Assembly (NCBI GenBank): GCA_038065075.1
Contig: JBBTRQ010000019.1
Coordinates: 9,456-73,455, forward strand
Reading direction: 5' to 3'
Origin: Patescibacteria group bacterium
Lineage (GTDB): Bacteria; Patescibacteriota; Patescibacteriia; UBA9934; GWF2-40-263
Length of the DNA: 64,000 nucleotides
Shown piece by piece: positions 12,977-15,165 of this stretch. The notes beneath the pieces were generated by a model. That model made no database searches and was not told the DNA's origin. It worked only from the letters and a program-made list of their open reading frames with translations. Position 1 is the stretch's first letter. Every line of letters begins with the position of its first letter. The translations under genes and the position numbers were made by a program.

Positions 12977-13000
12977 AACTCTTATGAGAATACCATAAAC

Positions 13001-13032
13001 AAAACAACCCGACGATCGGGGTGTTTTGGCGG
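13001..13032. repeat. Direct repeat copy 1 (att-like) of the tRNA-Ser 3' end plus downstream hairpin
   Basis: AAAACAACCCGACGATCGGGGTGTTTTGGCGG is 31/32 identical to 15052-15083. Confidence 0.6.
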
Positions 13033-13155
13033 GACGGAAAAGTCATGAACCAAAATCAGTAATGTTTTGTAAGGGATTTTGGAAAATTTTGTCTTTGAAA
13101 ATTTTAGGCCTGTAGGTCGATTGATTTTTGTCATCAGGAAGTGGAAAATACTCGA

Positions 13156-13908
13156 CTAGTACTTCAGAAGAACATTCTCAATGAGGTCGAGAGCAAATTC
13201 AGTCGTTTTGTGTGCTGAGAATGAAATTCTTGATGGGTGACCGGCGCTATTTCGGATACCAAGCTTCTCGTCGAGAATCTTACGCACGTCATGCGATATG
13301 ATGTTTGCGCTGCGCATGAGTTCTATAACACGCGATTCCTTAAAATCCGAGAAGTCATCGTAAGCGACAACGGGCTTCATTTTCTTGTCGGAATGGGCGG
13401 CGATGGCAACGTTATATTTATCAAGATGATTTCCAAAAATGAACTTCTGCAAGTGGTCCATGGTCAGTATCCAGACCATGATGATCGCCGCCCGGTATGA
13501 TTCGACGCGATAGCTGCGTATTGCTTCCTCAAGGAACGCGCGCTCTTGTGAATCAATAAGCCTTGGAACCATGTCCAGAAGATGCTCTGCAACCTGAACG
13601 CGCTTCGGTTCAGCATCGACAGCAATGCGAATCTCATCGAACGCGGAACGCTCGAGCCTATAACCCCTTGGATGCTTTATGTAGCGGCCTCCCTTTTTCG
13701 TTACTTCTTCAGATAAATAAACCGAGAGACGCGAATAGGGCCGTATGTCAAGAAGCGCCATAGACTCCTCGACATCCACAACTGTGACGATTTCGGTGCT
13801 CGGCTGAGTCAGGAGATAATAAGCAAGGTAATCAACTTGCTTCGTTGTCGCCCAGCTGGCGAAGTCGACGAAGCGTGTAACGAATAAGTTGAGTGCTTCA
13901 CGTGTCAT
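13156..13908 (-). CDS. Hypothetical protein with a C-terminal Rx4H (HEPN-like) motif. Possible abortive-infection/RNase-type protein
   Basis: 'KLGIRNSAGHPSRIS' lies near the C-terminus and the rest is predicted helical. It is the last gene of a 3-gene overlapping operon inside the tRNA-Ser islet. Confidence 0.4.
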   Translation of the reverse strand: MTREALNLFVTRFVDFASWATTKQVDYLAYYLLTQPSTEIVTVVDVEESMALLDIRPYSRLSVYLSEEVTKKGGRYIKHPRGYRLERSAFDEIRIAVDAEPKRVQVAEHLLDMVPRLIDSQERAFLEEAIRSYRVESYRAAIIMVWILTMDHLQKFIFGNHLDKYNVAIAAHSDKKMKPVVAYDDFSDFKESRVIELMRSANIISHDVRKILDEKLGIRNSAGHPSRISFSAHKTTEFALDLIENVLLKY

Positions 13909-14342
13909 ACGCTCTTCTTTCTAAATCCTTTCTGCACCATTTCTTCGCCGCTACGCGTCAATACCCATGCCTTCAGACTATCTTTCTTCTCCTTTTCCTC
14001 CATGAAGTGTCCCTTCGCGACGCACATGTTAGCCTTGTCATTTATGTTACTTGGCACCTGCTCCTTTGCGGCGCGGAATCCCTTTTCAAGATCAGCACCG
14101 TTGAAGGAGGCTGTCTCTTTGTGAAGTTCGAGGTAGTATCCGATCGCTAGTGTCATCTGCACGGCATTAGTGGGAGCACGGTCAATGATGAACTCCTTGA
14201 TGGACAGCTCCTTCTCGACCGAACGTACGATAACCGCTTCACCAACTGCCCGCGGCTGTCCCTCAAGGTGTGCAACACGTTCGTTGAGTTCTTTTATCGA
14301 TGCGAGAATTTCTTCAAGCAAACCTCTCGTTTCTGAGTCCAT
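13905..14342 (-). CDS. Hypothetical protein (145 aa), middle gene of the islet operon
   Basis: 4-nt overlaps with both neighbours. No recognisable domain. Confidence 0.4.
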   Translation of the reverse strand: MDSETRGLLEEILASIKELNERVAHLEGQPRAVGEAVIVRSVEKELSIKEFIIDRAPTNAVQMTLAIGYYLELHKETASFNGADLEKGFRAAKEQVPSNINDKANMCVAKGHFMEEKEKKDSLKAWVLTRSGEEMVQKGFRKKSV

Positions 14343-14344
14343 AC

Positions 14345-14749
14345 TTATGCGTTTTTAGGTACGTCATTTTCCAGGCGCTCGATAACCGAATCGACACGCC
14401 GGTTAGGAATTTCATAATTCTTTCCGCTTCCAGCGAGGTACCCATCTTTCTTCAACTTCTGGATTGTCGGATCGACCGTACCCTTTGGGAGTCCAGTCTT
14501 CTCGTGCACTTCCTTGCCGGAAGTGCCCGCGACTTCGGTTACTCCGTCGGCTTTAAGAAGTTTCCTTACGAGGCAGTATGCGAGAACTTTCTCCTCGTTC
14601 TTGAGGGCATTGCCTTCCTTCGTGTAGAAAACTCCATCACCTCCCCGCTGTATGCTAAGGATCGGCTTGAGAGCGTTTACGGCTCGCTCAGTGTCGAATG
14701 GGCCGCCGTCCGTGTAGAGATCTTCCAGTAACGATTTTTTTTCATTCAT
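14345..14749 (-). CDS. Putative winged-helix DNA-binding protein (134 aa), first gene of the islet operon
   Basis: 'EVHEKTGLPKGTVDPTIQKLKKDGYLAGSGKNYEI' looks like an HTH plus wing. Confidence 0.4.
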   Translation of the reverse strand: MNEKKSLLEDLYTDGGPFDTERAVNALKPILSIQRGGDGVFYTKEGNALKNEEKVLAYCLVRKLLKADGVTEVAGTSGKEVHEKTGLPKGTVDPTIQKLKKDGYLAGSGKNYEIPNRRVDSVIERLENDVPKNA

Positions 14750-15051
14750 AGGAATTGGGTTATTTCACGGCCATGGTAACACTCTAGTGAACTGTGTCAA
14801 GTGATGGCAAATTTCTGCTTATTCATAACCAGATATGTATAAATAATGTAATATTTATTAGGCCAATCGAACTATGCTATGGTAAGCGTATACATAACTA
14901 TGCCACAGATGTATTCTAGAATAGAGATTACGTCAACAAAAACGTATAAGTCTACAGTATGTTTTGCATATCTCATAGCGTTTGCGCGCTATTTTAGAAT
15001 CAGATTCTGGATCTAACAATGACATTCGATCGATCAATTCTGCTTATAATC

Positions 15052-15083
15052 AAAACAACCCGACGATCGGGTTGTTTTGGCGG
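15052..15083. repeat. Direct repeat copy 2. Includes the last 6 nt of tRNA-Ser and the downstream terminator hairpin
   Basis: AAAACAACCCGACGATCGGGTTGTTTTGGCGG. The hairpin is AACCCGACGATCGGGTT. Confidence 0.6.
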
Positions 15084-15165
15084 AGAGGAGAGGATTCGAA
15101 CCTCCGATACCTTGCGGTATATTCGCTTTCCAAGCGAACGCACTAGGCCACTATGCGACCTCTCC
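15078..15165 (-). tRNA. tRNA-Ser (anticodon GGA) with a long variable arm and encoded CCA
   Basis: Reverse complement folds as acceptor GGAGAGG/CCTCTCC, anticodon loop TTGGAAA, extra arm TATACCGCAAGGTAT, T-loop GGTTCGAATCC, and ends GCCA. Confidence 0.8.

Follow-up and report, generated by a model that had tools for sequence, protein, structure and literature searches.

The stretch of DNA analysed here (the window, 64 kb) belongs to the metagenome-assembled genome (MAG) of an uncultured Candidatus Uhrbacteria bacterium (Patescibacteria) and carries a short islet at the 3′ end of a tRNA-Ser(GGA) gene. The islet is a foreign segment of 2,013 nt inserted between two copies of a 38-nt direct repeat, and we hold with high confidence that it is an insertion. 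It contains three genes, referred to as A, B and C, the last of which encodes a protein with a HEPN domain. Homologous or syntenic contigs that were fetched for comparison bear locus labels (L001, L003 and so on). The features, ordered from the tRNA gene through the islet and into the chromosomal flank, are as follows.

15078-15165, minus strand: tRNA-Ser(GGA), intact, the integration target, with its 3′ end toward the islet (ARAGORN; Rfam RF00005, 55.8 bits)
15046-15083, no strand: tRNA-proximal 38-nt repeat (attL-like, att standing for attachment site), comprising CCGCCA, a terminator hairpin with 13 perfectly paired bp, and TTAT; L052 and L053, whose sites are empty, have one copy with which it aligns
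14750-15045, minus strand: AT-rich non-coding leader, GC 0.35, with no counterpart in the empty-site genomes and no blastn match to the L001 cassette
14800-14773, minus strand: predicted sigma-70-like promoter (TTGACA, 16 nt, TACCAT, extended TG), about 24 nt upstream of the gene A start
14345-14749, minus strand: gene A, 134 aa, first in the operon, probable winged helix-turn-helix (wHTH) protein (open reading frame (ORF); sub-threshold wHTH matches)
13905-14342, minus strand: gene B, 145 aa, coiled coil, linker and winged helix; proposed partner or antitoxin of C (ORF)
13156-13908, minus strand: gene C, 250 aa, N-terminal winged helix and C-terminal HEPN domain, Pfam PF27235 'AF_1680'; proposed RNase effector (ORF)
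13033-13155, minus strand: non-coding 3′ tail of the islet, the last ~19 nt of which (13033-13051) are a degenerate copy of the tRNA T-arm/acceptor (repeat comparison, alignment)
12995-13032, no strand: distal 38-nt repeat (attR-like), hairpin with one mismatch, now the cassette terminator and just upstream of the VTT gene; its variant bases are those of the empty-site sequence
12416-12976, minus strand: VTT-domain membrane protein gene, chromosomal flank, which abuts the tRNA terminator in islet-free genomes (synteny)
10634-12406: dnaG, following the VTT gene, chromosomal flank (synteny)

Repeats, tRNA gene and operon

The 32-nt sequence AAAACAACCCGACGATCGGG(G/T)TGTTTTGGCGG occurs at exactly two sites in the window, 13001-13032 and 15052-15083, when up to three mismatches are allowed (shuffled sequences are expected to give none), and a relaxed hairpin pattern search of the window returned the same two sites only. 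These 31/32-nt direct repeats had been recognised in a preliminary description of the locus and are found here to reach 38 nt with 2 mismatches (12995-13032 versus 15046-15083), beyond which a weaker similarity, 81% over 57 nt, continues toward the T-arm side of the tRNA. The second copy spans, as described there, the last 6 nt of the tRNA, which read CCGCCA with the CCA encoded, and the terminator hairpin; the repeat thus comprises these 6 nt, a 13-bp hairpin with a 3-nt loop and a U-run, and finally TTAT. Each copy folds into a 13-bp hairpin of terminator type, with energies of -19.2 kcal/mol (z -5.4) and -16 kcal/mol (z -2.8).

The unique DNA between the repeats (13033-15045) has a GC of 0.461 compared with 0.556 for the window, and the AT-rich stretch that had been placed at 14750-15050 has a GC of 0.347 over 14750-15049. 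Of the ORFs between the repeats, only A, B and C are taken as genes; they form the tightly packed minus-strand operon of 134, 145 and 250 aa that had been reported; A and B are separated by 2 nt and B and C overlap by 4 nt (ATGA). None of the three matches a recombinase family, in agreement with the earlier statement that no integrase lies between the repeats. The Rfam scan of the islet found no RNA family besides the tRNA, so that nothing points to an RNA antitoxin of the AbiF kind. Arm-type repeats were sought in the non-coding islet DNA without a convincing result, and the 64-kb window holds no paralogues of A, B or C.

Filled and empty sites in relatives

Relatives were fetched by synteny through DnaG, which is encoded in the flank of the islet and whose best named homologues belong to Candidatus Uhrbacteria. 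Over the 10 kb compared, a contig of MAG GCA_964359885.1 is 100% identical to the window, and the islet with two copies of the 32-mer is present in each of the same-species contigs L003, L046 and L047. In L052 and L053, whose DnaG is 83% identical to that of the window, the neighbourhood is conserved (TrmB-like gene, DUF218 gene, two small genes, tRNA-Ser(GGA), VTT-domain gene, dnaG and a sigma-70 gene) and the islet is absent, the VTT gene following tRNA-Ser(GGA) after about 50 nt. A multiple alignment places a single CCGCCA, hairpin and TTTAT at the tRNA end of both contigs. When the window is compared with L052 by blastn, positions 15217-15046 and 13032-9359 map to segments that overlap by exactly 38 nt, while positions 13033-15045 have no counterpart; the two flank alignments to L053 likewise share exactly these 38 nt. 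The empty tRNA-Ser site that the preliminary description had suggested looking for in relatives therefore exists, and its single copy in syntenic genomes indicates a precise insertion with a 38-nt att-like duplication and not a reused terminator. The distal copy of the repeat has the two variant bases of the empty site, and the proximal copy is the perfect hairpin, a pattern that fits a crossover near the tRNA end in which the element would have supplied the proximal copy.

L051 (DnaG 86% identical) also lacks the cassette and has another insert of about 440 nt (5904-6340) at the same junction of CCA and terminator hairpin of tRNA-Ser(GGA). This insert contains a 108-aa ORF with no family match, and the only visible repeat is CCG(C/T)CA. 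The presence of a different insert at the same junction suggests that the tRNA-Ser(GGA) site is a recurrent target.

The 5′ side of tRNA-Ser(GGA) is variable as well (L052:3744-4822 and L053:2381-3317, equivalent to about 15217-15324 of the window). L052 has a YARHG-domain gene and a 141-aa gene there, L053 has genes of 161 and 111 aa, and the window has nothing. Further out on this side of the tRNA, the window contains two adjacent paralogous small genes (15325-16111; 135 and 124 aa) with no family match, and this pair is kept in all the Uhrbacteria relatives examined.

Proteins encoded by the islet

The AlphaFold model of C (pLDDT 94) has two domains, a winged helix at about residues 1-100 and a HEPN domain at about 105-250; Foldseek agrees with this domain reading, with weak E-values. 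The second domain is the all-alpha helical bundle typical of the HEPN fold and contains the Rx4-6H motif, with R219 and H224 in RNSAGH. The preliminary description had pointed to this motif at the C-terminus, and the residues R219, N220, S221, H224, P225 and S226 (motif IRNSAGHPS) are invariant in 28 homologues down to 48% identity; the N-terminal winged helix and the Pfam family are additions to that description.

C belongs to a uniform family of ~250-aa proteins, Pfam PF27235 'AF_1680'. The label is a precomputed assignment of the near-identical protein P0001 and of homologues, and it is attached to all 120 listed homologues except one truncated fragment (P0086). A profile search of 1.84 billion cluster representatives (clustered at 50% identity) found 1,584 members of the C family at E ≤ 1e-3, 898 of them at E ≤ 1e-10. 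The HEPN half of C has weak links to PD-T7-3 (PADLOC, E 1.4e-4) and to phrog_27609 (E 1e-7), and a marginal sequence match to PDB entry 9wx2, 'Dandelion-hepn' (E 0.08 and 0.012), falls on this half too. A full-text literature search for 'AF_1680' gave no relevant paper, and nothing relevant was found in the literature on 'Dandelion' together with HEPN or defence systems. There were no Pfam or PADLOC matches at E ≤ 1 to AbiD/F, AbiJ, AbiU2, AbiV or other PADLOC systems.

The 134-aa protein A had been described as a winged-helix protein. This remains probable from its sequence, and no firm match was obtained; the matches to wHTH families (TrmB, E 0.0012; IclR, MarR_2, MCM_C and DtxR) are all below threshold. 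hhalign detects no relation of A to B or of A to C. The 145-aa protein B, previously listed as unknown, could be resolved into an N-terminal coiled-coil helix (residues 3-28), a disordered linker (29-47) and a C-terminal winged helix (48-137). Neither A nor B matches nucleotidyltransferases, i.e. C has no neighbour of the minimal nucleotidyltransferase (MNT) antitoxin type. Against the orthologues from Paceibacterota, all three genes have non-synonymous differences (pN) of 0.09-0.16 and saturated synonymous differences (pS), which indicates that A, B and C are under strong purifying selection; B evolves fastest, and the dN/dS of A is ~0.04 against L001. pN values of 0.09-0.25, again with saturated pS, likewise point to purifying selection.

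The cassette in other genomes

A locus scan for C homologues, taking one genome per species, found 42 loci across phyla, nearly all with a partner gene directly upstream of C; these upstream partners and C fall in one single-linkage group. The closest subclade has an A-like gene at the head of the operon, and between A and C there can be one to five paralogous genes for coiled-coil and winged-helix proteins. Orthologues of A lead the cassette in L001, L058, L057, L005, L015 and L007. The number of partner genes varies between genomes from one to about five (L015:5793-8684; L005-L008 around 6600-8750), which suggests duplication and diversification of the partner. The combination of a winged helix-HEPN protein with one or more coiled-coil-winged-helix partners is missing from PADLOC 2.0 and has no annotation in RefSeq.

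The cassette is repeatedly found next to tRNA genes. L001 (Paceibacterota) has an A-B-C operon at tRNA-Ser(GCT), with 75% nucleotide identity by blastn that is confined to the ORFs. Of the 14 non-redundant loci whose C is at least 48% identical, six carry a tRNA on the same strand with its 3′ end at most 2 kb upstream (P ~7e-6, a rough binomial), the tRNAs being Ser-GCT, Ser-GGA, Gln twice, Glu and Ser-CGA. L014 lies on a Nitrospirales chromosome (OZ245029.1, 6886-8859), where tRNA-Ser(CGA) is followed by four tandem copies of a 58-nt segment that runs from the T-loop to the 3′ end of the tRNA and 35 nt downstream. Copies 1, 2 and 3 are spaced by two GC-rich units of ~209 nt without an ORF, and B-C lies between copies 3 and 4 with no recombinase between them; C is frameshifted there (76 + 141 aa). 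The array looks like serial accretion of miniature att-bounded units. Significant tRNA-derived repeats were also found in L011, L022 and L009, and none were found in L010, L012 and L013. Similar hairpins had suggested a degenerate second repeat at the distal end of the L001 cassette; it was dropped, its score being 26 against 25 elsewhere in the locus, and no claim is made for it.

Other homologues lie in larger mobile contexts. At some loci they adjoin large serine recombinases, one contig carries terminase and primase-polymerase (Prim-Pol) genes, and one homologue is beside a LexA-like repressor, a ParB-methylase, a small terminase and a SMODS/AGS_C gene. A homologue on an Ochrobactrum plasmid, annotated only as 'hypothetical protein', lies among IS66, VapC/Phd and an integrase, and a Ralstonia megaplasmid also gives matches, without annotation.

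In L055 (195-12847) the cassette and a GIY-YIG gene are flanked by an inverted duplication of ~4.3 kb, in which SWIB, histidine kinase and response-regulator genes are mirrored, which may reflect an artefact of assembly or a segment capable of inversion. L056, the NCBI version of the same locus, has a 546-aa large serine recombinase and a tRNA-Asn beside the cassette. In L010 a 204-aa ORF on the minus strand (5054-5668), with the Rx4H-like motif FRNGIAHT and no Pfam match, lies between tRNA-Gln and the cassette; it could be another gene of the HEPN type within that tRNA-linked island.

Comparison with known systems

The islet shares with tRNA-targeted islands the location at a tRNA 3′ end, a reconstituted tRNA, direct repeats containing the tRNA 3′ end, a deviating GC and empty sites in relatives, as well as tandem arrays of att copies at the related loci L014 and L009. 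It differs from them in having no integrase or excisionase, a size of only 2 kb, 6 nt of tRNA in the repeat and no identified cognate integrase or parent element. Since every defining feature of a tRNA island except its own integrase is present, the locus is best called an integrase-less islet similar to a cis-mobilisable element (CIME). CIMEs are cis-mobilisable, integrase-less derivatives found beside streptococcal integrative and conjugative elements (ICEs), and like them the islet has att sites on both sides and no recombination genes.

Integrative mobile elements exploiting Xer (IMEX), such as CTX-phi and the gonococcal genetic island, use the host XerCD recombinases at dif. The islet resembles them in lacking an integrase, in having a duplicated palindromic site of ~30 nt and possibly in relying on a recombinase encoded elsewhere, and the analogy concerns mechanism only: its site is a terminator hairpin beside a tRNA with a loop of 3 nt, whereas dif-like sites have a central region of 6-8 nt. 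Capture of the Xer/dif type was rejected on this site geometry. Hairpin-directed transposition of single-stranded DNA (IS200/IS605 or REP/RAYT) was rejected because the hairpin is part of the target and is still there when the site is empty; the true 38-nt duplication and the presence of only two copies in the window also speak against it. A Y1_Tnp gene is present near dnaG in relatives.

With HepT/MntA, RnlA/RnlB and AbiF the cassette shares a small operon ending in an Rx4H HEPN protein, a coupled upstream partner and a location in mobile DNA. The partner differs, however, being a coiled-coil and winged-helix protein and not an MNT nucleotidyltransferase, RnlB or an RNA, and C has a winged helix of its own at the N-terminus; searches of Pfam, PADLOC and NCBIfam gave no match to any of these families. 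C is also weakly similar to PD-T7-3, now DARNA, over the first HEPN helices (the PADLOC match above, C residues 116-172), and both have the Rx4H motif. DARNA is a HEPN tRNA anticodon nuclease activated by single-stranded DNA bound by the phage single-stranded DNA-binding protein (SSB), and is a single protein of 456 aa that forms dodecamers, its HEPN domain being N-terminal and its C-terminal domain Pds5-like (bioRxiv 10.64898/2026.02.22.705581). The two share the logic of a HEPN domain fused to a nucleic-acid-sensing domain. In contrast, C has 250 aa, the order winged helix then HEPN, and partner genes, and the match covers positions 12-67 of the 432 of the profile only; C is not a member of the DARNA/PD-T7-3 family. 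The earlier view that the cassette cannot be assigned to a named family holds for PADLOC, NCBIfam, PHROGs and the Pfam copy scanned, which lacks PF27235.

Origin and proposed function of the islet

The islet would have arisen by integration through a tRNA-specific integrase, probably of the tyrosine type, encoded elsewhere or since lost. With the last 6 nt of the tRNA and the terminator hairpin as the recombination site, an attL/attR-like repeat of 38 nt is left on both sides. The original att copy would have been displaced and now terminates the inserted operon, and the tRNA stays intact. The integrase may have acted in trans, the islet being a CIME or a satellite-like mini-element, or it may have been lost through internal deletion of a larger prophage or integrative element.

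The layout of the operon is that of a type II toxin-antitoxin (TA) system, with adjacent, co-oriented and coupled small genes (B-C, ATGA), one of which encodes a putative nuclease-type toxin. By analogy with other HEPN proteins, C would dimerise via its HEPN domains into a metal-independent RNase that cuts tRNA or mRNA. B, translationally coupled and with a disordered linker, would keep C inactive and/or repress the operon, possibly together with A, which would act as a regulator. Phage infection or loss of the islet would free the RNase and arrest growth, and such toxin-antitoxin or abortive-infection (Abi) behaviour would also stabilise the islet. This toxin or defence mechanism is proposed tentatively, as we give it slightly less than an even chance. 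The explanation as a whole, a site-specific insertion of a HEPN toxin/defence operon, appears on balance to be the right one, by a modest degree.

Several results weigh against this explanation. No integrase was found in the islet or among the 10 other window ORFs scanned, so that the recombination mechanism is deduced from the anatomy of the site only. No more than 6 nt of the duplication lie in the tRNA and the larger part is terminator sequence, an atypical arrangement for integrases that target tRNA genes. Neither reads nor contigs gave evidence of excision, and L048 represents the filled state. A, B and C have no above-threshold match in PADLOC, NCBIfam or the Pfam copy scanned, and a defence or TA role is accordingly without direct support. 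The C family is absent from cultured-phage records (tblastn) and represented by one locus in IMG/VR. The winged helix of B and the N-terminal winged helix of C are marginally homologous (hhalign probability 50%), and some HEPN domains are non-catalytic or act in RNA processing.

With respect to origin, the islet could be the decayed remnant of a prophage or integrative element that inserted at tRNA-Ser(GGA) and was deleted down to a moron-like HEPN cassette and its att sites, now immobile. The larger mobile contexts of homologues (terminase/Prim-Pol; LexA-like/ParB-methylase/small terminase; serine recombinases), the missing integrase and the filled state of all same-species contigs would agree with such a history. 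Both att copies, however, are near-intact, there is little unique DNA beyond the operon and its promoter, the independent minimal B-C islet in L014 is easier to explain if the minimal unit moves, and serine recombinases such as those of the larger elements do not make tRNA-derived repeats of 38-58 nt. The L014 islet leans toward a trans-mobilised mini-element and the larger phage-like contexts lean toward a remnant, which we regard as possible, at appreciably less than an even chance. It is improbable that the cassette is ancestral and was lost from L052 and L053 by recombination between the repeats, with no recent insertion in the lineage of the window. Such recombination between 38-nt repeats would restore exactly their single-copy site, and the saturation of synonymous sites between the window and L001 indicates that the cassette did not come from there very recently; the repeats would nevertheless still require an insertion event, the GC is 9 points under that of the genome, L051, L052 and L053 are without the cassette while the flanking synteny is conserved, and the same operon lies at other tRNAs in other phyla. 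The preliminary description had itself raised the possibility of a terminator reused at many loci, or of relatives with housekeeping genes between both repeats; on a similar reading, a common terminator would be used twice and A, B and C would be ordinary chromosomal genes. The relatives have an empty site instead, and although the repeated core is a terminator-like hairpin, the repeat includes the CCGCCA of the tRNA and 5 nt past the hairpin, is present in two copies only in the window, and its 32-mer has no exact match in JGI metagenome contigs or IMG/VR. The reused terminator is almost certainly not the explanation.

With respect to function, A, B and C could form a nucleic-acid-binding regulatory or RNA-processing complex that is neither toxin nor defence system and that might work for the mobile element itself, say in copy control or in a partition-like role. 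The (probable) winged helices in all three proteins, the one to five paralogous coiled-coil and winged-helix genes upstream of C in relatives, the lack of a defence-family match above threshold and the 50-80% identity across phyla, a very high conservation that is uncommon among fast-evolving defence genes, point in this direction. The RNxxxH signature, on the other hand, is invariant in C, whereas HEPN domains without catalytic activity have usually lost it; the cassette occurs patchily and in association with mobile elements, and translationally coupled small genes laid out in this way are typical of TA and Abi modules. A regulatory complex is thus considered unlikely next to the toxin/defence operon.

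Other features of the window

Between the DUF218-like and TrmB-like genes (16746-16827) the window contains a perfect 29-nt inverted repeat, AGATAGGTTCAGGTACTTCCAAAAAATTT, with a 24-nt spacer, which could be a bidirectional terminator or an operator. At 30321-32576 there are two tandem paralogous WD40 beta-propeller genes of 379 and 365 aa.

Implications

Patescibacteria, members of the candidate phyla radiation (CPR), have tiny genomes in which few mobile elements or defence systems have been recognised. Comparison of filled and empty sites documents here, base by base, how a compact cassette for a putative RNase was gained at a tRNA gene, and the islet is an example of integrase-less mini-islets that are possibly moved by recombinases in trans. 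To the specialist, a clean filled/empty pair in a CPR genome together with recurring integrase-less tRNA cassettes is noteworthy and not startling. A broader proposal, which is speculative and rather unlikely as it stands, is that the winged helix-HEPN protein and its array of one to five partners constitute an unrecognised anti-phage or addiction system, in which the partners would be exchangeable sensors or decoys that license the RNase, and which would spread as integrase-less minicassettes via tRNA-specific integrases encoded elsewhere. If this were true, such minicassettes would be a cheap route of defence acquisition for small-genome CPR bacteria. The documented gain and the recurrence of the cassette at tRNA 3′ flanks in other phyla together make it a concrete, testable candidate for a new HEPN-based toxin/defence module, and if confirmed, this would give a functional label to the uncharacterised Pfam family PF27235, with its ~1,600 sequence clusters.

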